Source: a virus. From it: 64,000 bases of DNA. The stretch lies in IMG/VR virus record IMGVR_UViG_3300045988_010396, positions 32,001 to 96,000 of that record; one strand, written 5' to 3'. A program made the translations under genes and the position numbers. The stretch's first letter is position 1; each line of letters begins with the position of its first letter. Below the pieces are notes generated by a model, which saw only the letters and a list, made by a program, of their open reading frames with translations, ran no database searches and had not been told where the DNA came from. Shown here in pieces: positions 1,188 to 42,191 of this stretch.

Positions 1188-1362
1188 ATAACTATGATTT
1201 ATAATAAACTAAATATATCTGTCCACCAAGAGTAAACATATTTACTATAGCCTCTCTTGGTATACCAAGTTCATTTGCCTGGCTTATTATACCCCTAATT
1301 GTCTGACCTACTATACAAGTCATTACTTTATTCTTCTCACCCATGTTCTAACTATTTTATAG

Positions 1363-1436
1363 TTTCGGGAGTAGGACTCGAACCTACAACCTCCAGCTTA
1401 TGAGGCTGGTTAGCTACCATTGCTAGCATCCCGAGA
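1363..1436 (-). tRNA. tRNA-Met (CAT)
   Basis: reverse complement has GGTTCGAGTCC T-arm, a 7-bp acceptor stem and anticodon loop CTCATAA. Confidence 0.8.
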
Positions 1437-1612
1437 TATTGCCAAGATTTGGTATGGTACTTGGCATTGTAAGGTTAACCTTATACTTACACCCCCAATC
1501 ACCTACACCTATTAAGCTGTTGTTTATACAGGTCAGCTCCTGTTGAGGTTTACCTAGTAGCATTGGGTGTTACTCTATCACTGTAGGTAAGACAGTTTTT
1601 AGTAACTTGTAG

Positions 1613-1686
1613 AGCCTCCCCTCAGAATCGAACTGAGACTCCCTGTTTACAAGGCAGGTTTGCTAAACCATTAACACTAAGGAGGC
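1613..1686 (-). tRNA. tRNA-Thr (TGT)
   Basis: acceptor GCCTCCT/GGGAGGC, T-loop TTCGATT, anticodon loop CTTGTAA. Confidence 0.7.
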
Positions 1687-1690
1687 ATAG

Positions 1691-1772
1691 TACCCCTGAC
1701 AGGAGTTGAACCTGCAATCCCCAAGGGCGTTGGTGTTTAAGACCAATGTGTATTCCATTCCACCACAGGGGC
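1691..1772 (-). tRNA. tRNA-Leu (TAA), type II
   Basis: 82 nt, acceptor GCCCCTG/CAGGGGT, anticodon loop CTTAAAC, 15-nt variable arm. Confidence 0.75.
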
Positions 1773-1779
1773 ATTATAC

Positions 1780-2232
1780 TTAGTAAGGTCTCAAATCACA
1801 TAACTCAAAGAGGTACTTGTATTTCAGTATATTATGTATGAATGTCTCACACTCAGACCTAATTCCTGCATATAGAGTTCCTTCTGGAATATTCTCATAG
1901 AACTTAGTAGTTCCTGCTTTGACCTCATTGATGAAGTCAATAGCATTAAGAGCATCACTAGGAGCACCTTTAATCACATTAGGTTGCATATGTCCAAGCA
2001 ATCCCTGATATTCCTCTGCCAATCCATCCTGATAGTCTGAGATAATACCTAGGAACTCATCTAGGTAAACATGAATATTCTTCTTAGGAGCTGCCCAATG
2101 CAGATTCTTACACTTAGTCTTCCAACCCTCCAGAAGGTTAATGAAGCTAATGAAGAATTGACTAGGGTTCTCATCTTGAGAAGGCTTGAACATCTCATCC
2201 ATTAGCTGATTATCTAGAAAAACACTATCCAT
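1780..2232 (-). CDS. hypothetical protein embedded in the tRNA array
   Basis: 150-aa ORF between two tRNA-Leu genes. Confidence 0.45.
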   Translation of the reverse strand: MDSVFLDNQLMDEMFKPSQDENPSQFFISFINLLEGWKTKCKNLHWAAPKKNIHVYLDEFLGIISDYQDGLAEEYQGLLGHMQPNVIKGAPSDALNAIDFINEVKAGTTKFYENIPEGTLYAGIRSECETFIHNILKYKYLFELCDLRPY

Positions 2233-2318
2233 TTCTCTAATTCTTTATTTGATACTGCAAAGTTAAGCTAAATATTTAACCTATGCAAGTAAATTACATT
2301 ATTTAACTAAATTATCTG

Positions 2319-2401
2319 TACCCTCCAAGGGACTTGAACCCTTATGTACTTAGTACACTAGTTTCTAAGACTAGCCTGTATACCCATTCCAGCAGGAGGG
2401 T
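2319..2401 (-). tRNA. tRNA-Leu (TAG), type II
   Basis: anticodon stem CTAGT/ACTAG, loop CTTAGAA, long variable arm, T-arm GGGTTCAAGTCCC. Confidence 0.75.
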
Positions 2402-2411
2402 GTAAGCTCTC

Positions 2412-2858
2412 TTATAGAGAGCTATATTCTTTTGTAGCATCAAAGCTAGGGCAAGCTTTTGAGCTAAAGTCTCTGTGCCCATGTATAGATGCTTGAGGGT
2501 ACTTAGTCTTTAACTCCTTAAGTAACTTAACTAATGACTGCTTCTGCTGAGCAGTCCTAGTATCTTTAGGTGTCTTGCCATCAGAAGCACATCCTCCTAT
2601 ATAGCATACTCCAATAGAGTTAGCATTATGGCCAGCACAGTGTGCACCTATAATAGACTCATCTCTACCTGTATGTATAGAACCATCTCTATATATTACA
2701 TAATGATAGCCTATATCAGAGAAGCCCCTTTGAAGGTGCCACTGTCTTATAGTATCTACACTATAGTCTTTACCTTCTGGTGTGGCACTACAATGTACTA
2801 TTATTTCATTTATTTTTCTTGCCATACATATATTATAAAACTTATCATGTTCCCCCAC
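2412..2858 (-). CDS. N-acetylmuramoyl-L-alanine amidase (Amidase_2/PGRP fold), probable endolysin
   Basis: IVHCSAT...DIGYHYVI..DG.I..GR...AH...NSIGV..IGG pattern typical of T7-lysozyme-like amidases. Confidence 0.8.
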   Translation of the reverse strand: MGEHDKFYNICMARKINEIIVHCSATPEGKDYSVDTIRQWHLQRGFSDIGYHYVIYRDGSIHTGRDESIIGAHCAGHNANSIGVCYIGGCASDGKTPKDTRTAQQKQSLVKLLKELKTKYPQASIHGHRDFSSKACPSFDATKEYSSL

Positions 2859-2922
2859 TAGGAGTCGAACCTAGCTCTCAGGATTAAAAGTCCAGAGTAT
2901 CCACCATCAATGCTTTGGGGGA
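2850..2922 (-). tRNA. tRNA-Lys (TTT)
   Basis: acceptor TCCCCCA/TGGGGGA, anticodon loop CTTTTAA, T-loop TTCGACT. Confidence 0.75.
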
Positions 2923-2994
2923 GTGAAGCAGGGTCTTTTTAAGAGGTTTCATCTTATTCCTAGGAAAGATTTTTACCCTGCACACCCTCTAGTG

Positions 2995-3068
2995 CGCCTC
3001 CACAAGGACTTGAACCTTGAGTCCCCTGCTTAAGGGGCAGGTGCTTTAACCAATTCAGCTATAGAGGC
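2995..3068 (-). tRNA. tRNA-Lys (CTT)
   Basis: acceptor GCCTCTA/TGGAGGC, anticodon stem CCTGC/GCAGG, loop CCCTTAA. Confidence 0.75.
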
Positions 3069-3074
3069 TTATAG

Positions 3075-3149
3075 ACTTGTAGGTGGGATTTGAACCCACG
3101 AATCACCAGTTTTGCAGACTGTGCCCTTAGACCACTCAGGTACTCCAAG
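3075..3149 (-). tRNA. tRNA-Cys (GCA)
   Basis: T-arm GTGGGTTCAAATCCCAC, anticodon loop CTGCAAA; one acceptor mismatch. Confidence 0.65.
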
Positions 3150-3153
3150 ATAG

Positions 3154-3231
3154 TACTGGCAGAGGGACTTGAACCCCCATGTGACCAATTACCCTTTCTA
3201 GACTGTATAAGAGTCAGGGGATATGCCAGTA
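3154..3231 (-). ncRNA. atypical tRNA-like element (anticodon unassigned)
   Basis: acceptor ACTGGCA/TGCCAGT and T-arm GGGGGTTCAAGTCCCTC are clear, but no canonical D-arm or anticodon arm; internal hairpin GACT-CTTATAC-AGTC. Confidence 0.4.
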
Positions 3232-3238
3232 TGTTGGG

Positions 3239-3311
3239 GTGTCTGATGGGAGTTGAACCCACACTACTTGGAGCCACAATCCAAGGCTCTGACCAATTAA
3301 GCTACAGACAC
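3239..3311 (-). tRNA. tRNA-His (GTG)
   Basis: extra 5' G(-1), discriminator C, anticodon stem TTGGA/TCCAA, loop TTGTGGC. Confidence 0.8.
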
Positions 3312-3313
3312 AG

Positions 3314-3385
3314 TTCTGATGAGTGGACTCGAACCACTAGCTACTGCCTTATGAGAGCAGCTTTCTACCATTGAAATACATCAGA
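3314..3385 (-). tRNA. tRNA with CAT anticodon (second copy; Met/fMet or Ile-lysidine type)
   Basis: acceptor TCTGATG/CATCAGA, anticodon loop CTCATAA. Confidence 0.75.
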
Positions 3386-3391
3386 ATATGT

Positions 3392-3465
3392 AGGTACAAT
3401 AGGACTTGAACCTATAACCTCTTGAATATCAGTCAAGTACTCTAACCAATTGAGTTATGTACCTA
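3392..3465 (-). tRNA. tRNA-Ile (GAT)
   Basis: acceptor AGGTACA/TGTACCT, anticodon stem CTTGA/TCAAG, loop CTGATAT. Confidence 0.8.
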
Positions 3466-3469
3466 TATG

Positions 3470-3542
3470 TGGGAAAGATAAGAATCGAACTTATATCCAA
3501 GGATTTTCAGTCCTCTGCATAGACCATCTTTGCTACTTTCCC
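3470..3542 (-). tRNA. tRNA-Phe (GAA)
   Basis: acceptor GGGAAAG/CTTTCCC, discriminator A, anticodon loop CTGAAAA. Confidence 0.75.
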
Positions 3543-3545
3543 ATT

Positions 3546-3619
3546 GCAGATAGAGTAAGACTCGAACTTACATCTAAGGGTTAACAGCCCCTTGTTCTAA
3601 CCTTTGAACTAAAGACCCA
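3546..3619 (-). tRNA. tRNA-Asn (GTT)-like; acceptor strands do not pair in my reading (possible pseudo-tRNA)
   Basis: D-arm, anticodon arm (loop CTGTTAA) and T-arm resemble E. coli tRNA-Asn, but 5' GGGTCTT does not pair with 3' TCTATCT. Confidence 0.4.
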
Positions 3620-3627
3620 TTATTTGT

Positions 3628-3699
3628 TGCTCCTACAAGACTCGAACTTGTGACCTTTGGTATGTAAAACCACTGTTCTTAACCACTGAACTAAGGAGC
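3628..3699 (-). tRNA. tRNA-Val (TAC)
   Basis: acceptor GCTCCTT/TAGGAGC, D-arm GTTC..GAAC, anticodon loop TTTACAT. Confidence 0.7.
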
Positions 3700-3783
3700 A
3701 TTGATAGGGTAGTTTCTTTAACCTCTAACTACCAAAAGAGGGTTCTAGCAAAAGCTCAACATTATGAAACACGGAAACTAATG

Positions 3784-3856
3784 TGGAGAATGAGAGACTC
3801 GAACCCTCTAATATAGCTTGCAAAGCTATCAGTTTAGCCAGTTAGCTTAATTCCCC
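3784..3856 (-). tRNA. tRNA-Ala (TGC)
   Basis: anticodon stem ATAGC/GCTAT, loop TTTGCAA, discriminator A. Confidence 0.75.
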
Positions 3857-3861
3857 ATTAG

Positions 3862-3934
3862 TATGGGTACTTGGACTCGAACCAAGGACAACTACATCCC
3901 AAATGTAGCATTCTACCTACTGAATTACACCCAT
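3862..3934 (-). tRNA. tRNA-Pro (TGG)
   Basis: anticodon stem CTACA/TGTAG, loop TTTGGGA, T-arm CTTGGTTCGAGTCCAAG. Confidence 0.8.
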
Positions 3935-3940
3935 ATATTG

Positions 3941-4023
3941 CGGAGAGATGAGGTCCCGACCCCCAAGCATTACTGCCCCCATTGTTTTCAAGACAAGTCC
4001 CAGTCCCACTGAGTTATCTCTCC
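3941..4023 (-). tRNA. tRNA-Ser (TGA), type II
   Basis: acceptor GGAGAGA/TCTCTCC, discriminator G, anticodon loop CTTGAAA, long variable arm. Confidence 0.7.
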
Positions 4024-4075
4024 ATTTGCCTACCTACCACTGTAGGATAGGACTTTGGTTTTGTTATAAGTGTGC

Positions 4076-4146
4076 AGACTATGAGGGAATTGAACCCTAA
4101 CCTTCACATTGACAGTGTGATATGCAAACCACTACACTACATAGTC
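4076..4146 (-). tRNA. tRNA-Asp (GTC)
   Basis: acceptor GACTATG/CATAGTC, anticodon stem TCACA/TGTGA, loop CTGTCAA. Confidence 0.7.
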
Positions 4147-4158
4147 TATATAATTTAG

Positions 4159-4230
4159 TACCCCCTGATAGAATCGAACTATCATTCTAAGTTTAGAAGA
4201 CTCATGTATTATCCATTATACTAAGAGGGC
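4159..4230 (-). tRNA. tRNA-Arg (TCT)
   Basis: D-arm GTAT..ATAC, anticodon loop CTTCTAA, T-arm GATAGTTCGATTCTATC. Confidence 0.7.
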
Positions 4231-4238
4231 ATCTCTAG

Positions 4239-4310
4239 TTGGGACTAGAGGTCTCGAACCTCTGCTATAAGAGCCAAAATCTCATGTGACTGCCACTACA
4301 CCAAGTCCCA
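4239..4310 (-). tRNA. tRNA-Gln (TTG)
   Basis: acceptor TGGGACT/AGTCCCA, anticodon loop TTTTGGC, T-arm AGAGGTTCGAGACCTCT. Confidence 0.7.
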
Positions 4311-9403: not shown

Positions 9404-9489
9404 ACTCCCTTAGCTCAGTTGGTTCCGCAAGGCTTGAGAGCATCGGACTTTTAATCCGAGGGTCATGGGTTCGAGTCCCATAGGGAGTA
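9404..9489 (+). tRNA. tRNA-Lys (TTT)-like with a roughly 13-nt insertion in the D-loop
   Basis: acceptor ACTCCCT/AGGGAGT, anticodon stem TCGGA/TCCGA, loop CTTTTAA, T-arm ATGGGTTCGAGTCCCAT; D-arm GCTC...GAGC encloses extra CCGCAAGGCTTGA. Confidence 0.55.
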
Positions 9490-9506
9490 CTATTCATTTC
9501 ATTCAA

Positions 9507-9826
9507 GGGGCTGTATTTGGTCTTGACTGGTGGCTACTTGGTATGAGGACATGCAGAGACTGATGGAGAGACATCAAAACTTTAGGTGGCAACAGAATTT
9601 CTGCACCTGTAGCTCTTGCTGCTTAAGCAATCTACTGAGTTAGTCACTGACTTGGAAACAGAATAGTGACAAGACAAGATTTCTTGCATAGATAAATGCA
9701 AGTGGTGGACTATGTTGACAATCCAGTCAACCCCAGCAGAGAACCAACTGCATAATAAAGTGGTAAGCATGTGTAATCCTTATATTGAGAGCTATTAGGA
9801 CAGGGGTTCGACTCCCCTCAGCTCCA
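9507..9826 (+). ncRNA. ssrA: tmRNA (SsrA-like)
   Basis: 5' GGGGCTGTATTTGG...GACTGG and 3' GGACAGGGGTTCGACTCCCCTCAGCTCCA closely match the E. coli ssrA ends; acceptor GGGGCTG/CAGCTCC; internal tag frame GGC AAC AGA ATT TCT GCA CCT GTA GCT CTT GCT GCT TAA = ...NRISAPVALAA*. Confidence 0.8.
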
Positions 9827-9902
9827 GAGGCACGTTGTTAGATACTTCCACGTAGTGTGCCTTGGGTTAAAAGCTAGATTCTAACAAAAAAAAAAAGATT
9901 AT

Positions 9903-10205
9903 ATGTTAATAACAGAAAGAGCAAAAAGGAAAATAAATACTTTATTAGATAGTACTAATGATTGTATAAACTATCCTAAAACTAATAAAGATGGTTATGG
10001 GGATATTCAAGAGATTGTGGAGGGTAAAAAGCTCCACATGTTAGCTCATAGAGTATCTTATCAGTTATATACAGGAGAAGACATATCACCTGATGATATA
10101 ATATGTCATAGATGTGATAATCCTGCTTGTATTAATCCTAGACATTTGTTCAGAGGCACTCACTCAGATAATATTAAAGATAAGGTTTGTACCCATTATT
10201 CATAA
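9903..10205 (+). CDS. HNH homing endonuclease
   Basis: [13 protein letters not shown]...[15 protein letters not shown]...HSDN (HNH_3-type). Confidence 0.7.
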
Positions 10206-10501
10206 GCGGTCGTAGCATAATTAGCGGTGACGCGGTAGTGGAATCCAATTACGACTATATTGTTTTCAAGAACTGGTGGTCATCAGGAAGATACTTTACA
10301 TGGACTAGAAGCAATGATATGTGGTGTGTTGGATGCTTCTACGGCACGGGCAAGGAGCTAATCGCTAAAGCCTACAAGGACAGCAAGGTGAGTGGTAGAG
10401 AGTATGAGAGAATAGTCAAATATGTAGAGCGGATTAAGAGAGACAGCAAGCCATCTTTGTGGCGGAGAATACTGTTTAATCTTAGCAAGCTCTGCAAATA
10501 G
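10187..10501 (+). CDS. hypothetical protein (possibly frameshifted C-terminal domain of the preceding HNH endonuclease)
   Basis: overlaps the HNH ORF in another frame. Confidence 0.3.
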
Positions 10502-10523
10502 TATAAAATTAAACTACATCAGA

Positions 10524-10805
10524 ATGGCAAAGATTGTAAACAATGACAAGGGGTTCAAGGTAATCAGCTTGTCAACAGAGGATGCAGCATCTCTGGGCTT
10601 TGGTATAGATGGCTCAGGTACATGTATATGTATGCATTGTAATAAGGGGTGCCGTAGTGGAGACATCTATTACATTGCAGTGCTTCATGACACTATGTGC
10701 AAGAAGTGCTATGAGAGGTGGATTAAGTCTGCTACAAGGTATGCAGAAGATATACCCATTGAAAATAGGAACTTCAACCACTATAAGGAGTGGCTGTGTC
10801 TGTGA
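10524..10805 (+). CDS. small Cys-rich zinc-binding protein
   Basis: CICMHC...C and CKKC motifs. Confidence 0.4.
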   Translation: MAKIVNNDKGFKVISLSTEDAASLGFGIDGSGTCICMHCNKGCRSGDIYYIAVLHDTMCKKCYERWIKSATRYAEDIPIENRNFNHYKEWLCL

Positions 10806-10943
10806 TTATTCTTATATTGTAGTGTACTATGTATTTCAAAGAAGATGAACCAATAAGAGTGCTTATGACAACACCTCTTCCTGACCCCTACTTATAAGGG
10901 CAGTTATTGGTACTAAAGTTAAATTTATGTTAAAGGTAGGTCA

Positions 10944-10980
10944 TTTGTTTGGTAATATCAAACTTTTGACTTACCTTTGC
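10944..10980 (+). promoter_or_regulatory. candidate Bacteroidetes-type sigma-A promoter upstream of the Ro60 gene
   Basis: TTTG, about 20 nt, then TACCTTTG (-33 TTTG / -7 TAnnTTTG consensus) roughly 26 nt upstream of the ATG at 11006. Confidence 0.4.
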
Positions 10981-11005
10981 GGTGTTCAATTAAACAACAG
11001 AGATT

Positions 11006-12429
11006 ATGTGTTCAAAAGTTAATCCTAACCTAAAGCCTGTACCTAAGTTTGAAAACACTCAACTGGCAGGTGGTTATGGTGCATTAGCTGCCAGGCAGTC
11101 CAATGTAGCATTGCTTAGAAGAGCAGTGCTGGCTAATCTCCTTTGAGAGGATGTAGCATATATGGATGGTGAGAGAGTAGCCAATGAAATACAGAGGTTA
11201 ATACCTCTGTGCCCTGCTGAGGATGTATATAATATAGCTCTTGAAGCTAGGTTAATGCAGAAACTGAGGCATACTCCATTGTTTATAGCAGTGGAAATGT
11301 GCAAGTATCCTGAACATAAGTTATTTGTTAAGGACTTGCTACCAAAGATAGTTACAAGAGCTGATATGCTCACTGACTTCTTGGCTATATATATATATAT
11401 TGGAAGGATGGCAAGCATCCTATCTGTAACCAAGCTAAGAAGGGTCTTGCTCTAGCCTTCCACAACTTCAATGAGTATAAGTTGGCTAAGTATGACAGAG
11501 ATGCTGCTATCAAGCTCAGGGATGTGATGTTCTTGGTACATGCAAAGCCTAGAAACCAGTATGAGCAGGAGTTGTTCAATAAGGTAGCTGAGAGAACTCT
11601 CACACCACCTGAGACATGGGAAGTCATGTTAAGTAGAGGTGATGACAAGAAGGCTACTTGGACTAAGCTCATTACAGAGGGTAAGATTGGAGGTCTGGCT
11701 ATGTTGAGAAACATAGCTAATATGCAGAAGGCCAATGTGGATAGAAGGACTATCCAAGATGGCCTTAAGACACTGAGAAGCTCAATGCTATTACCTCTTG
11801 ACTTCTGGAAGGCTGCTAGAATGAACCCAGCATTTGAGAGAGACATTGAGGATGCTATGATAGAGGCATATAAGAACTTACCTAAACTTCCTGGCAAGAC
11901 ACTATTTATAGTGGATGTATCAGGTTCTATGGGTTTTTTAACCTCTGGTAGCTCTCAGTTCAACAGGATGGACCAAGCTTGTGCTATGGCTATCTTGGCA
12001 GCTAATCAGTGTGAGGACTATGAGCTTGTAGCTACAGCAGGTAATGATGATTCTAAAATAAGTGCCTCAGAGTGGATTGAATATCCAAAGAGAGGTTTTG
12101 CTCTTGCTCCACAGATAATGGATACCAGGCATAGGATTAGTGGTGGAGGTATATTCACCAGGCAGTGCCTAGAGTGGTGTAAGGATAAGTTCAAAGACAA
12201 GAAGTTTGATAGAATTATCATATTCTCAGACTCTCAAGACTGTGACTATCCTGAGAAGAGAGTACCTAAACCATTTGGTACATATAACTATATTGTAGAT
12301 GTATCTGCTCATACAAGAGGAGTGAACTACAAGGGTGTATGGACTGCTGAGGTTTCAGGCTGGTCAGAACATTTCTTGACTTATATTGCAGCTCTTGAGG
12401 GATTGCAGAATAAGTTTGAGGAGCAATAA
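11006..12429 (+). pseudogene. rsr: Ro60 / TROVE-domain plus vWA RNA-binding protein (Rsr-like), interrupted
   Basis: N-terminus ...QLAGGYGAL.. (Ro60 NAGGY motif) runs into an in-frame TGA at 11144-11146; continues in the same frame to 11455; after the (TA)7 tract at 11386-11400 the homologous reading moves to frame 1 (...FHNFNEYKLAKYDRD..VMFLVHAKP like Ro60 ALAVTKYKQRNGW..LLRLSHLKP); AMLRNIANMQKA and vWA MIDAS FIVDVSGSMG match human Ro60 ALLRNLGKMTA / LLAVDVSASM. Confidence 0.8.
11386..11400. repeat. (TA)7 dinucleotide tract at the frame junction inside the Ro60 gene
   Basis: tatatatatatatat; losing one TA unit would join the upstream (frame 2) and downstream (frame 1) TROVE segments. Confidence 0.9.
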
Positions 12430-12580
12430 ATAAAAAGAGCCTATAAGTGAAAGTCAGAGTTACTTCAATATTGGGATATTTTGACACTCTGACAAAGTGT
12501 TCTATAGGCTTTTAAGCTCTTCTATAGTTAGAAAGAGTTTCGAGACCCGATTGCCTTTGATGCATCTCGGGTCTTGCGAT

Positions 12581-12717
12581 GGAGGAGTTAGCTCAGAGGT
12601 TAGAGCAGTTAAACAAGACACTCTACATACTGTTCTCTAGTAATAGTAGTGATTTGTAGAGATACTTCAAGCACTTTCATTGCACAGGTCATAGGTTCGA
12701 GTCCTATACTCCTCCCA
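12581..12717 (+). ncRNA. tRNA-like RNA with about 85-nt insertion in place of the anticodon arm; candidate YrlA/Y-RNA-like tRNA mimic (copy 1)
   Basis: acceptor GGAGGAG/CTCCTCC plus CA, D-arm GCTCAGAGGTTAGAGC, T-arm ATAGGTTCGAGTCCTAT; insertion contains AGTAGTG...ATACTTCAAGC. Confidence 0.6.
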
Positions 12718-12740
12718 ACTTTGTTGGATTTTGTGTGTTT

Positions 12741-12777
12741 TACCTCACTGGTATGTGAATATAGGTGAGGTTTTTAC
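12741..12777 (+). terminator. Rho-independent terminator after Y-RNA-like copy 1
   Basis: ACCTCAC...GTGAGGT hairpin followed by TTTTT. Confidence 0.55.
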
Positions 12778-12780
12778 AAG

Positions 12781-12918
12781 GCGGAGTAGCTAAATGGTTA
12801 AAGCAACACCCTTACAGAATTTATCTGGTAAAGCAGTAGTGGGTTGTCAGGGTTACTTCAAGGTTATAGCATTAGTTTTGGGTGCTAAAGAATGTAAGTT
12901 CGAGTCTTACCTCCGCCA
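12781..12918 (+). ncRNA. tRNA-like RNA with inserted module; candidate YrlA/Y-RNA-like (copy 2)
   Basis: acceptor GGCGGAG/CTCCGCC, D-arm GCTAAATGGTTAAAGC, T-arm GTAAGTTCGAGTCTTAC; anticodon-stem-like CACCC...GGGTG encloses about 66 nt containing GCAGTAGTGGGTTGTCAGGGTTACTTCAAGG. Confidence 0.6.
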
Positions 12919-13127
12919 CTTATTTACCTACCTCACCTAGCATAGTTATACAGGATAAGACCCATTATGATGGAGCACCGATGAAACTATCCTAGCCACG
13001 CTGGTATTGCTATTCAGTGAGTGAGAAAATGAATAGCCTCGAAGCATAGTGGAGATAACGTCAAGGAGTACCATCCTTAGCAGCTATGTAAAATTGGTTG
13101 ACAATCTGGAAAGACAGATAATAAAAT

Positions 13128-13257
13128 GGGGGAGTAGCTAAATTGGTTACTATACTCTTGCTGTTATTCTCTGGAAGCAGTAGTGTTAGCAAAGAGTTAC
13201 TTCAAGCATTCATCTGGTAAATGAAAGTATATTGGTTCGAGTCCAATCTCCCCCGCA
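13128..13257 (+). ncRNA. tRNA-like RNA with inserted module; candidate YrlA/Y-RNA-like (copy 3)
   Basis: acceptor GGGGGAG/CTCCCCC, T-arm ATTGGTTCGAGTCCAAT; insertion GGAAGCAGTAGTGTTAGCAAAGAGTTACTTCAAGC. Confidence 0.55.
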
Positions 13258-13457
13258 AAATAGAGGTTAGTGAATGTTACAGTTACTTCAATTATGATTA
13301 GTATATTGGTTTAACATTCAATCAAGAAAGGAGTAGATTTATTCACAACTTTTTTAACTCAACCCAACTGTGGCAGAGTTGTTCTACCTCTATTAAGAGG
13401 GCTATGGTAGTAATACTATAGTCCTCTTTCTTTTTGAAATTGTGTTAGCTACATATA

Positions 13458-13874
13458 TTGTATTACTTAAAAAAAAAAAGTATGGCAAAAACAAATGAAA
13501 GTGTCGGGAGAGTCGAGGACTTGAAGGCACAAGTGAAGGACCTTCTAGGCTTAGATGCCATGATGGATGAGAGTGTGACTAAGGAAATGAAGGACGAACT
13601 TATCGCTCAGGCTAAGAACAAAGGTGATAAGCACATCGAAGAGGTGATGGACACCATTGAGAAGGCACTTGAGAAGGTTAAGGACCCTGAGTTCAAGGCT
13701 ATCATCGCCTCTATCATATGGACTAAGTGTCCTATAGGTATGCAGAAGTCCTGCATTGAGTTTCACAACAAGCTGTTGTGTGTTGCGATGGCTGCTCATA
13801 TGGATAAGCAGACTAAGGGTAATTCCCTTGCAGGTCTTGCACTGCTGTCAACTGTACTTGGAGATAAGAGATAA
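13458..13874 (+). CDS. hypothetical protein
   Basis: 138-aa ORF, K/E-rich. Confidence 0.4.
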   Translation: MYYLKKKSMAKTNESVGRVEDLKAQVKDLLGLDAMMDESVTKEMKDELIAQAKNKGDKHIEEVMDTIEKALEKVKDPEFKAIIASIIWTKCPIGMQKSCIEFHNKLLCVAMAAHMDKQTKGNSLAGLALLSTVLGDKR

Positions 13875-20343: not shown

Positions 20344-20874
20344 ATGGCAAAAGCATTGATTTTAGCTAAGACTGGGTTTGGTAAATCCAGTTCACTGGTT
20401 GGTGTACCCTCTGCTGGTATATTAGGCTTGGACCCTAAGGAGACTTATCTCCTTAGCTGTGTTAATAAGCCTCTGCCTATCAAGGGTGCATCTAAGATTT
20501 ATGTGCCTATACCTATGCAGGGTATTACTCCTGCTAACTTAGGTTCAGTCATAGGTAAGGGCAACAGGATTATCACCAAGGATGCCAAGATTGTAGCTGC
20601 TGCTATAGAGTTGCTAATCAATTCACCCTTCAAGAACATAGTAGTTGATGATATGAACTATCTATCGCAGGACTACTATATGAAGAATGCCATGAAAGGT
20701 GGTTGGGACACTCCTAAGCAGATAGGTTACAATATGGGTCTTATCTTTGACCAGATTGACAATGTGCCTGAGGATAAGAACATTATCTGTATGGCTCACT
20801 TTGAGACCTACAAGGATAAGAATGGTGACTCCATCTCTTACAAGTACAAATCAACTGGTAACATGGTAGCATAA
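20344..20874 (+). CDS. small P-loop protein
   Basis: N-terminal AKTGFGKSS Walker-A-like motif. Confidence 0.35.
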   Translation: MAKALILAKTGFGKSSSLVGVPSAGILGLDPKETYLLSCVNKPLPIKGASKIYVPIPMQGITPANLGSVIGKGNRIITKDAKIVAAAIELLINSPFKNIVVDDMNYLSQDYYMKNAMKGGWDTPKQIGYNMGLIFDQIDNVPEDKNIICMAHFETYKDKNGDSISYKYKSTGNMVA

Positions 20875-21084
20875 CATCTGCCATTATCTATCTAATTGCT
20901 GGAACACCCTAAAGACAACTGAACTACAAAGTAATTGGTAACAATAAGCTTGAATGTTTGAAAATCAGTTGTATTCTTAGTGATGGAGAAATGGGCAATC
21001 AGCAGCCAAGGGACTCTACGAGTTCAAGGTTCATCGACTATCCCCTGTTGTGGGGGAGTACATTTATAAAGTAATCAATTATAT

Positions 21085-21699
21085 TTGGAAATGGTAGACA
21101 ATAGAGAAGTACACATTTATGCATTAAGACATCCTGATACCTTAGAAATAAGGTATGTCGGTAAAACAGTGAGAAAATTAAGTAGAAGGTTAGGGAATCA
21201 TATTGCAAATGCTAAAGGTAACCAGCACAATAAGCATTTAAGTAATTGGATTCTTAATATCTTGAAGGAAAATAAGAAACCTGTAATAGAACTCTTGGAA
21301 ACTTGTCAAAGTAATAACTGGCAAGAAAGAGAGCAATATTGGATTTCTCAATTTCCTAATCTGATAAATCTCACTGCTGGAGGAGATGGATGTGTAGGTT
21401 TTATTCATGATTCTAAAGCTATAGAAAAGATTAGACAATCTAAATTTGGTACTAAACATTCTGTAGAATTTAAGGAAGCTATGAGTAAAAGGCTTAAAGG
21501 TGTGCCTCTTAGTGAAGAACATAAAAGTAAAATAGGTTTAGCTAATAAGGGAAGGAAGGCTTCGGAAACTGCAAGAAAGAGGCTATCAGAATCCCACAAA
21601 GGTATTACTCAGAGTGAGGAATCCAAAAGAAAAAGAAGTGAATCTATTAAACTTTGGTGGACTAAGAGAAAGTCTATTGAAGATATAGTCAAATCTTAA
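21085..21699 (+). CDS. GIY-YIG homing endonuclease
   Basis: HIYAL...IRYVGKT...R...N (GIY-YIG) with C-terminal K/R-rich NUMOD-like repeats. Confidence 0.75.
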   Translation: MEMVDNREVHIYALRHPDTLEIRYVGKTVRKLSRRLGNHIANAKGNQHNKHLSNWILNILKENKKPVIELLETCQSNNWQEREQYWISQFPNLINLTAGGDGCVGFIHDSKAIEKIRQSKFGTKHSVEFKEAMSKRLKGVPLSEEHKSKIGLANKGRKASETARKRLSESHKGITQSEESKRKRSESIKLWWTKRKSIEDIVKS

Positions 21700-31588: not shown

Positions 31589-32191
31589 ATGGAGTGTAGT
31601 ATTTGGATTTATCAAAAATTCTTAGTATCTTTGCACTTTGCAACTAAAGTTTTTGAAGATATGGAAGAAATTTGGAAAGACATTCCTGGATATGAGGGAT
31701 TGTACCAAGTTAGTAGTCTTGGAAGGTTCAAAGCTCTGAGTAGAGTAAGAAAGGGAATTTATGGAAATAGAATCTACAAGGAAAAGTTATTATCTCCTAA
31801 AGTGAATTTTGATAGGTACTACTATGTAACCTTAACTAAGGAAGGTAAGAAAACTAGTTATAGAGCACATAGACTAGTAGCTTTAGCTTTTCTTGGAGAT
31901 AGCAATCTAGTCATAGACCACATTGACGGTAATCCCTTGAATAATGAGGTTACTAATCTAAGATATGTATCTCAAGCTGAGAATGTTTCTAATCCTAATA
32001 CTATATGTAAGCAGTATAAGCCTGTTATACAGTTGTCTATGGATGATACTGTTATAGCTGAGTATCCTTCAGTTATGAGTGCTGCACTAGCAGTGGGAGC
32101 TTATAAATATGGGACTCATATAGGGCAGTGCTGTAATGGAAAGAGGACTACTGCATATAATTATAAATGGAAATGGAAAGAAAAAGTATAA
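31589..32191 (+). CDS. HNH homing endonuclease (NUMOD4 plus HNH_3)
   Basis: WKDIPGYEGLYQVSSLGRFKAL then AHRLVALAFLG...DHIDGNPLNN...N. Confidence 0.75.
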   Translation: MECSIWIYQKFLVSLHFATKVFEDMEEIWKDIPGYEGLYQVSSLGRFKALSRVRKGIYGNRIYKEKLLSPKVNFDRYYYVTLTKEGKKTSYRAHRLVALAFLGDSNLVIDHIDGNPLNNEVTNLRYVSQAENVSNPNTICKQYKPVIQLSMDDTVIAEYPSVMSAALAVGAYKYGTHIGQCCNGKRTTAYNYKWKWKEKV

Positions 32192-41727: not shown

Positions 41728-41981
41728 ATAATAAATGTGGAACAGCAACTGAAGAATTGAAGCTCTGGATTATTGAGTTTGATATTATTGTTTCTAATAA
41801 TAAAGGATGTGCTGTAGTAAAAGCTAATAATCCTCATCAAGCGGAAATTCTGTTGAGAACAGAAGGTATAAGTAATGGTAATCCTGGGAAGTATTGTATT
41901 ACACGTATTGCAGAGATTATACCTTCTCCAGAAGCTATGCTAATATGTGAACAATGGGCACATCCTGTGGATGATTATTGA
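41679..41981 (+). CDS. hypothetical protein (possible partner of the HicA-like gene)
   Basis: 100-aa ORF ending 4 nt before the HicA-like gene. Confidence 0.3.
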   Translation: MGRSRAVFNYKWCYMVDNKCGTATEELKLWIIEFDIIVSNNKGCAVVKANNPHQAEILLRTEGISNGNPGKYCITRIAEIIPSPEAMLICEQWAHPVDDY

Positions 41982-41984
41982 TTT

Positions 41985-42191
41985 ATGAGGCAATATACAC
42001 AGAGAGAGTTTATCCAGATATGTGTAGCCAATGGTTTCTATTATAGCAGACATAATGGAGGCCATGCTATCTATGTCAATGATAAGGGAGGACACATAAG
42101 CATCCCACTAAACCTTGAGTGTGTTATTGCTAGGAGGCTCATTAAAGAGAACAATCTTGAAGTTGATATTAAGAAACTGAAAAAGGAGTAA
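41985..42191 (+). CDS. HicA-like (YcfA family) mRNA-interferase toxin homolog
   Basis: 68 aa; ...GFYYSRHNGGHAIYVN..GGHISIPLN pattern of HicA (G..RxxGSH......G...TIP.H). Confidence 0.5.
   Translation: MRQYTQREFIQICVANGFYYSRHNGGHAIYVNDKGGHISIPLNLECVIARRLIKENNLEVDIKKLKKE

Follow-up and report, generated by a model that had tools for sequence, protein, structure and literature searches.

The Ro60-like gene at positions 11006 to 12429 of the phage DNA examined here is most probably a young pseudogene. This DNA, hereafter called the window, comprises 64,000 nucleotides (nt) of IMG/VR virus record IMGVR_UViG_3300045988_010396 (positions 32,001 to 96,000). We assign a probability of roughly 85% to the reading that the locus is a recently inactivated copy of an accessory early gene, lost within a lineage in which the same gene has been lost recurrently. 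Recent pseudogenization was one of four possibilities listed in a preliminary description of the locus, and it is the one supported by the derived state of both lesions, by the agreement among contigs, and by the undecayed remainder of the gene. The proposed course of events begins with a G-to-A transition that would have converted the invariant Trp47 codon TGG to the opal stop TGA. Replication slippage would later have expanded a (TA)3 repeat to (TA)7, which would add 8 bp and shift the frame at about codon 131 of a gene that was already dead. By standard decoding, the locus would then yield no full-length protein and at most fragments of 46, 97, and ~315 residues.

The interrupted gene belongs to a crAss-like phage and resembles Ro60 genes

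The window carries crAss-like phage DNA. Positions 10900 to 12500 match the gp96 region of crAss001 at 74% nt identity with 96% of the query covered, and 23 further records of the same genus match this interval at 71 to 75%. As judged from these similarities, the phage is a Kehishuvirus-like member of the Steigviridae from the human gut. Bacteroides intestinalis is the host of relatives of this phage.

The gp96 protein (AXQ62739.1; Kehishuvirus primarius) is equal in length to the product expected here and ~78% identical in amino acid (aa) sequence. The genomic setting is also the same, with an early region in which HNH and transfer RNA (tRNA) genes adjoin the locus, followed by ~0.9 to 1 kb of non-coding DNA. 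The crAss001 gene differs in being an intact open reading frame (ORF) of 472 codons, with TGG at codon 46/47 and TTA TAT TGG at the position of the repeat, where the window has the stop and the additional 8 bp. Intact genes of other relatives have 471 codons. In crAss001, gp96 is an early gene that is transcribed within 10 min of infection and whose role is given as unknown (PMC8375218).

For protein comparisons we used a repaired translation, wherein tryptophan was placed at the stop and one TA unit was taken out. This repaired protein matches the Pfam TROVE family (PF05731) with 41.6 bits (cut-off 23; E=1.2e-10), in a match that spans just 59 residues. Its residues 25 to 464 align with the Ro60 protein of Thermus phage phiLo (E=3.8e-13), whose structures have been solved (PDB 9KOP and 9L5Y; PMC12135203). 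The vWA_Ro60 and VWA_2 families score below threshold (19.2 bits against a cut-off of 27.7, and 18.8 bits against 27, respectively), and a DVSGS sequence resembling a MIDAS motif aligns with DVSGS of the phage Ro60. Judging from these alignments, "Ro60-like TROVE plus vWA protein" is a fair name despite the weak similarity to canonical Ro60. Intact members in this phage group would be early-expressed proteins with a TROVE HEAT-repeat ring and a vWA domain. The analogy to known Ro60/Rsr proteins predicts that they associate with structured non-coding RNA, and the tRNA-like RNAs whose genes follow directly on the 3′ side are the probable ligands.

The window lacks an intact full-length reading frame for such a ring protein, because a TGA (11144 to 11146) and an 8-bp frameshift (11386 to 11400) interrupt it. 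These two lesions indicate that the locus is a pseudogene of a Ro60/Rsr family member and is non-functional as such.

Both lesions are derived

The in-frame TGA reported in the preliminary description for the TROVE ORF that starts at 11006 is present. Translation in the same frame past this stop reads ...LANLL*EDVAYMDGERV..., and the counterpart in crAss001 gp96, ...LANLLWEDVAYMDGLKV..., matches it on both sides of the stop (LANLL*EDVAYMDGE in the window corresponds to LANLLWEDVAYMDGL in gp96). The affected residue, Trp47, sits inside the near-invariant segment LANLLWEDVAYMDG in alignments that include crAss001 and seven close relatives. We compared both lesion sites with those of 57 relatives, drawn from 54 IMG/VR loci found by a scan with the repaired protein, crAss001, two metagenome contigs, and contigs of a protein index. 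Codon 47 is TGG in 56 of these relatives, and the sole exception (L060) also has TGA. The stop had further been placed in the region of the conserved Ro60 motif GSEGGTYY. This placement fits the alignment, wherein LLWEDVAYMD is matched with LFLGDNTYYE of the Thermus phage Ro60.

The second lesion likewise lies where it had been described, with homology moving from frame 2 to frame 1 across a TA repeat. Frame 2 ends with ...LTDFLAIYIYI and frame 1 continues with YIYIYWKDGKHPICNQAKKGL..., the switch occurring across TATATATATATATAT at 11386 to 11400. None of the 57 relatives carries more than (TA)3 at this tract, and the closest of them (89 to 98% identical) read GCT ATA TAT TGG, which encodes A-I-Y-W. 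Thus, the second lesion is an insertion of four TA units and not a slip of a single unit. This bears on the earlier remark that deletion of one TA unit would restore a continuous ORF. It would indeed do so, but the ancestral sequence is not regained, as two extra residues (I-Y) stay behind in a conserved segment. An allele with one TA unit fewer was never seen.

The tract is unusual within the 64-kb window, where it is the only TA run of at least five units. Three overlapping matches to (TA)5 were observed, all in this tract, compared with 0.65 in shuffled sequence. In a comparison with close relatives that spans ~8 kb, no insertion or deletion (indel) other than these 8 bp breaks the frame of a conserved ORF.

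Both lesions recur in separately assembled contigs

Exact copies of the 97-aa product (11162 to 11455) and of the 315-aa product (11482 to 12429) occur on five public contigs each, among them an ENA scaffold of 103,245 bp (ERZ28596678, SAMN06328475), a Logan contig (SRR5275468), and a JGI/IMG record. Contigs from the same three sources also yield the identical 46-aa N-terminal product. A neighboring protein that is specific to this strain occurs on five contigs of matching size classes, which suggests that apparently every contig of the strain carries both lesions. Over 12.3 kb, the only differences between the ENA scaffold and the window are two poly-A runs, each of which has 10 adenosines in one assembly and 11 in the other. 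Because the assemblies differ at these runs, neither is a copy of the other, and both nevertheless show the TGA and (TA)7.

These observations bear on the possibility, raised in the preliminary description, of an error in sequencing or assembly, in which case the genome would actually carry TGG and a TA tract that keeps the frame. The disagreement at two homopolymers (A10 versus A11 at 9886 and 13469) is what might be expected if such errors occur in these assemblies. What is seen, however, is a substitution together with an 8-bp insertion, and the window shares both in identical form with the ENA scaffold, the Logan contig, and the JGI/IMG record. In addition, the 15-nt tract is shorter than a sequencing read and shorter than a typical assembly k-mer, and the neighboring genes have no other frame-breaking indels. 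With both lesions present in all five contigs of the strain, an artefact is very hard to credit.

The poly-A runs themselves (9886 to 9896 and 13469 to 13479; A11 in the window and A10 in the ENA scaffold) could represent true heterogeneity or homopolymer error, and the first of them coincides with a break in the Logan contig.

The gene is under purifying selection in relatives and was probably inactivated recently

The gene is intact at 52 of the 54 IMG/VR loci, including those of all five closest IMG/VR relatives. Ratios of non-synonymous to synonymous substitution rates (dN/dS) are 0.06 to 0.17 for pairs among five intact close relatives and 0.06 to 0.23 over all pairs. Comparisons of the window with its relatives give 0.09 to 0.23, and the highest value is that between the window and L062, a strain with a nonsense allele of its own (Table 1). 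The low ratios among intact relatives indicate that strong purifying selection acts on the gene and that it is functional there.

On the branch leading to the window we find five synonymous and two non-synonymous substitutions, all before codon 148, and nothing else that is disabling. There are no window-specific substitutions after codon 147. The copy is therefore free of the drift of a long-dead pseudogene, which suggests that inactivation was recent. According to the preliminary description, a plain pseudogene might be revealed by relatives that share the disrupted gene with decayed downstream sequence. What we find is that the relatives are mostly intact, and that a few carry other, independent knock-outs or deletions.

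Related strains have lost the gene by other routes

Further disrupted alleles (Table 1) were recovered mostly by searching with gene fragments, namely through protein clusters that hold the fragments from the window, and their number therefore does not yield a frequency. Together with the window allele, they include two nonsense mutations, one frameshift by repeat expansion, and at least three deletions in one clade. The independent losses among close strains indicate that the Ro60-like gene is dispensable, at least in some conditions. As an anchor that does not depend on the TROVE gene, we used the downstream gene for a 123-aa protein. The exact protein is present on the five contigs of the strain, and IMG/VR holds only five relatives, all of which have an intact TROVE gene.

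The allele most similar to that of the window is in L060, which combines TGA at codon 47 with an intact (TA)3 and has an ORF of 420 to 423 aa after the stop. The existence of a strain with TGA alone fits the proposed order, in which the repeat would have expanded only after the stop had arisen. Synonymous differences separate the two TGA alleles 9 and 15 nt past the stop, and overall similarity to the window is higher for strains that have TGG. From these sequences, a single origin followed by recombination and two independent hits at the same codon cannot be told apart.

Genes for HNH homing endonucleases are mobile in this region (L060, 3107 to 3616; L070, 4195 to 4258; window, 9903 to 10205), and in L060 the ~23 last TROVE codons, beside the inserted HNH gene, have been replaced. 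Endonuclease cuts may drive indels of this early region.

The number of alleles raises the question of whether the knock-outs were selected, either because a host defense senses the TROVE protein or its ribonucleoprotein or because carrying the protein imposes a cost in certain Bacteroides hosts. Adaptive loss of this kind would refine the pseudogene explanation and not replace it, and the window would then carry one escape allele among many. In its favor, a single species-level clade contains at least six distinct loss-of-function alleles of a gene that is otherwise under strong purifying selection, and the Trp47 TGA is present on two local haplotypes. The deletions take the coding part and mostly spare the downstream tRNA-like RNAs, and the 5′ end of the gene is kept in two of the three deletion alleles (L065 to L069, and L070). 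Because the disrupted alleles were found via gene fragments, however, their frequency is not estimable. The IMG/VR sample is less biased, and there just 2 of the 54 loci look disrupted and the five closest relatives are intact. The early region is plastic and has HNH genes nearby, such that neutral, endonuclease-driven loss would suffice. On balance, we consider it possible but rather doubtful that selection drove the repeated destruction of the gene. If it did, the window would be one member of a natural allelic series of Ro60 knock-outs that could be used to probe the role of Ro60 in phages and to examine whether the tRNA-like RNAs act independently of Ro60.

Several points weigh against the reading of the locus as a young, inactive pseudogene. 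The lesions are known from assembled contigs, and minority alleles may be present within the sample. Moreover, the five contigs may stem from one or a few related samples. The occurrence of TGA on two local haplotypes is slightly odd for a neutral lesion. The seven lineage-specific substitutions are too few for dN/dS to separate very recent loss from continued selection. Finally, a shortened product could be made by re-initiation, either at the ATG at 11162 or at starts after 11482.

This last point can be developed into an explanation in which the locus still encodes a functional protein, either by re-initiation after TGA or from an internal start, for example a ~315-aa protein with half of the ring and the vWA domain. 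An in-frame ATG lies 16 nt past the stop, a long ORF follows the TGA in L060, and the C-terminal 1 kb lacks any window-specific substitution. That absence of substitutions is also expected of a recent lesion. Furthermore, the ORF after the TGA meets the frameshift after 97 codons in the window, and the 315-aa ORF, whose TTG start falls midway through a conserved helix, would miss a third of the RNA-binding HEAT-repeat ring. Sister strains delete the whole coding region, which argues that no part of the protein is indispensable. A functional truncated product is thus unlikely, although less so than the artefact discussed above.

Recoding and phase variation are unlikely to account for the lesions

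Some crAss-like phages of the Beta group (Steigviridae) reassign TGA to tryptophan or TAG to glutamine, mainly in late genes (PMC10136315). A full-length Ro60-like protein could in principle be made if TGA were read as tryptophan and if the ribosome or RNA polymerase slipped by one TA unit at the tract. The window phage is in a family that has recoded members. Its TGA, which a second strain shares, occupies precisely a Trp position, just as the TAG of L062 occupies precisely a Gln position, and slippage by one TA unit would permit perfect re-pairing. One-step transitions, however, create stops only from Trp, Gln, and Arg (CGA) codons, and therefore a TGA at a Trp position is not diagnostic.

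In recoded phages, in-frame stops are numerous and concentrated in late genes, and a suppressor tRNA is frequently encoded, whereas the window has a single TGA in an early gene. When the window was scanned for conserved proteins whose reading frame consists of two long stop-free stretches separated by one TGA, the Ro60-like gene was the only credible case. The giant late genes are free of in-frame stops, as the preliminary description had pointed out. Their ORFs of 2159, 1372, and 2215 codons (~5,700 codons in total) run uninterrupted. No suppressor tRNA (anticodon UCA or CUA) was found in ~74 kb made up of the window and 9.7 kb of upstream DNA (the upstream part was taken from the identical contig L079, and ~29 kb of the genome lie outside the search). 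The window holds ~21 tRNA genes and the upstream segment none, and two tRNAs that the prediction tool left unnamed were read as Lys-UUU and Asn-GUU.

Local readthrough or recoding of the TGA, which had been listed among the explanations, is thus disfavored by its being the sole candidate in the window, by the lack of a suppressor tRNA in the DNA searched, and by TGG in nearly all relatives. The frameshift site fares no better, since programmed sites are conserved, whereas this one is missing from every one of the 57 relatives. Sister strains that lack the whole gene show, moreover, that its loss is tolerated. In combination, recoding of both lesions is extremely improbable. We also dropped programmed frameshifting and transcriptional slippage as candidates for the tract, because the slippery site is not conserved and all 57 relatives have one uninterrupted ORF across this place.

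A second TGA, at 41979, had the appearance of a recoding site and was rejected. Here an ORF of 100 aa ends, and a separate HicA-like ORF begins at an ATG of its own. The latter ORF (41985 to 42191, + strand), directly after this TGA, encodes 68 aa that by eye resemble a HicA-type toxin (…GGHAIYVNDKGGHISIPL…).

Phase variation by TA repeats occurs in bacteria. If (TA)7 were such a contingency repeat, slipped-strand mispairing would toggle the gene, and the loss of one unit or the gain of two would bring the frame back. A seven-unit dinucleotide run slips more readily than (TA)3, and the locus resembles bacterial contingency loci in having a short tandem repeat within a coding sequence that is out of frame. 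In those loci, however, the repeats are maintained and polymorphic in length, whereas the tract in the window is found in one strain only, is invariant in its contigs, and lies 3′ of a nonsense codon that silences the gene at any tract length.

The search for length variants among catalogued sequences likewise failed to provide evidence for toggling. We looked up ten hypothetical products, corresponding to (TA)3, 4, 5, 6, 8, and 9 in combination with TGA and (TA)3, 4, 6, and 7 in combination with TGG, and none is present among ~15 billion catalogued proteins. Thus, there is no trace of intermediates or length variants in this collection, although the (TA)7 product is found on five contigs. An exact-pattern scan of IMG/VR with the tract flanks of the window gave no match, and the strain was taken as absent from that set. 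A pattern scan of metagenome contigs, in which 0 to 24 extra tract bases were allowed, recovered two contigs only, both with (TA)3 and TGG. Given that no relative exceeds (TA)3, the slipped-strand phase variation considered in the preliminary description is very improbable.

The mechanism that would explain the locus is therefore ordinary, in that a nonsense mutation and a slippage frameshift would have produced a young pseudogene, and neither a genetic switch nor a new rule of decoding needs to be invoked. For annotation, the three ORF fragments at 11006 to 12429 represent one TROVE pseudogene and provide no evidence for an alternative code in this phage.

Table 1. Features of the Ro60-like locus in the window and disrupted alleles of related strains. 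Coordinates are those of the window.
Feature	Position	Strand	Remarks
Whole TROVE/Ro60-like pseudogene	11006..12429	+	orthologue of crAss001 gp96 "TROVE domain-containing protein"
N-terminal fragment ORF	11006..11146	+	46 codons; ends at premature stop
Opal nonsense codon TGA	11144..11146	+	G>A transition at 11146 of Trp47 codon TGG
Middle part of gene	11147..11385	+	original frame (frame 2)
Mechanical ORF from middle part into out-of-frame tail	11162..11455	+	97-aa product
(TA)7T tract	11386..11400	+	four-unit (8-bp) expansion of ancestral (TA)3T; frame 2 to frame 1
C-terminal two thirds	11401..12429	+	frame 1; rest of TROVE ring and putative vWA domain with DVSGS MIDAS-like motif
Mechanical ORF of C-terminal part	11482..12429	+	315 aa
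tRNA-like element 1	12582..12715	+	acceptor, D, and T arms; long bulged helix replaces anticodon arm
tRNA-like element 2	12780..12919	+	extra stem-loop between D arm and anticodon arm
tRNA-like element 3	13187-13247	+	
L060 (SRR31227379)	codon 47		TGA; intact (TA)3; 169-aa HNH endonuclease gene inserted at TROVE 3′ end
L062 (SRR23937433)	codon 63		CAG>TAG
L065-L069 (8 contigs; five shown = five runs)	11122-12482		clean 1361-bp deletion
L070	~11200-12424		about 1.2 kb missing; only tail of HNH gene kept
L078	9483-12686		3.2 kb missing
L042 (more distant relative)			5′ deletion with frame change

Structured RNAs are encoded downstream of the gene

The ~1 kb of non-coding DNA 3′ of the TROVE gene (12430 to 13457) contains three tRNA-like elements on the same strand as the gene. 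Element 1 matches the Rfam tRNA model with 43.4 bits and a 74-nt insertion. Compensatory changes among 14 relatives support 16 of its 32 predicted pairs, and this covariation suggests that it is a real structured RNA. The element is a candidate Y-RNA-like partner of the protein and could be of a new kind. The 3′ part of element 2 is recognized by ARAGORN as tRNA-Pro (12846 to 12919).

The tRNA-like YrlA RNA is reported to adjoin Rsr in 254 bacteria and 22 phages (PMC4201824). The locus in the window resembles such Ro60/Rsr-YrlA loci in having tRNA-like non-coding RNAs within 1 kb and on the same strand, and it resembles the broader class of Ro60/Rsr-Y RNA particles in the TROVE ring and in a putative vWA domain with DxSxS, phiLo Ro60 being the closest solved structure. 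It differs in that the RNAs have free acceptor-stem ends as in tRNAs and in that the protein gene is dead. We found neither the YrlA motif GNCGAA(N)G nor an Rfam Y-RNA match (E<=1) in the downstream elements. For this reason we do not identify them as YrlA and refer to them as tRNA-like structured RNAs.

In three of the strains that have lost the TROVE gene by the 1361-bp deletion (L065, L066, and L069), the tRNA-like RNAs are kept at 97 to 100% identity. Element 1 is ~75% identical in L070 and mostly deleted in L078. The RNAs may act without the protein, or they may simply not have been lost yet. That a gene under strong purifying selection in crAss001-type phages is repeatedly lost while these RNAs persist suggests that the protein is conditionally dispensable, and natural knock-out strains are on hand for studies of Ro60 and Y-RNA function in phages.

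Other RNA genes in the window

A transfer-messenger RNA (tmRNA) is encoded in the early region, at 9507 to 9829 (+ strand; Rfam RF00023, 83 bits), with the tag peptide ASGGLC* predicted by ARAGORN. This region is gone in some close strains, as L075 lacks ~9503 to 10496 and L078 lacks 9483 to 12686. Just upstream, a tRNA at 9404 to 9490 (+ strand) scores 66 bits with the Rfam tRNA model and was left unnamed by ARAGORN; by eye it is a tRNA-Lys(UUU) with a D-loop insertion of ~12 nt. An array of 18 tRNA genes, none of them a suppressor, occupies positions 1362 to 4310 on the - strand. One of its members (3547 to 3618; anticodon GTT, Asn) was detected by Rfam and missed by ARAGORN. Finally, a group I intron at 20774 to 21155 (+ strand) matches Rfam RF00028 with 51 bits, just over the gathering score. 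It separates the ORFs at 20344 to 20874 and 21085 to 21699, which may be two exons of one gene.

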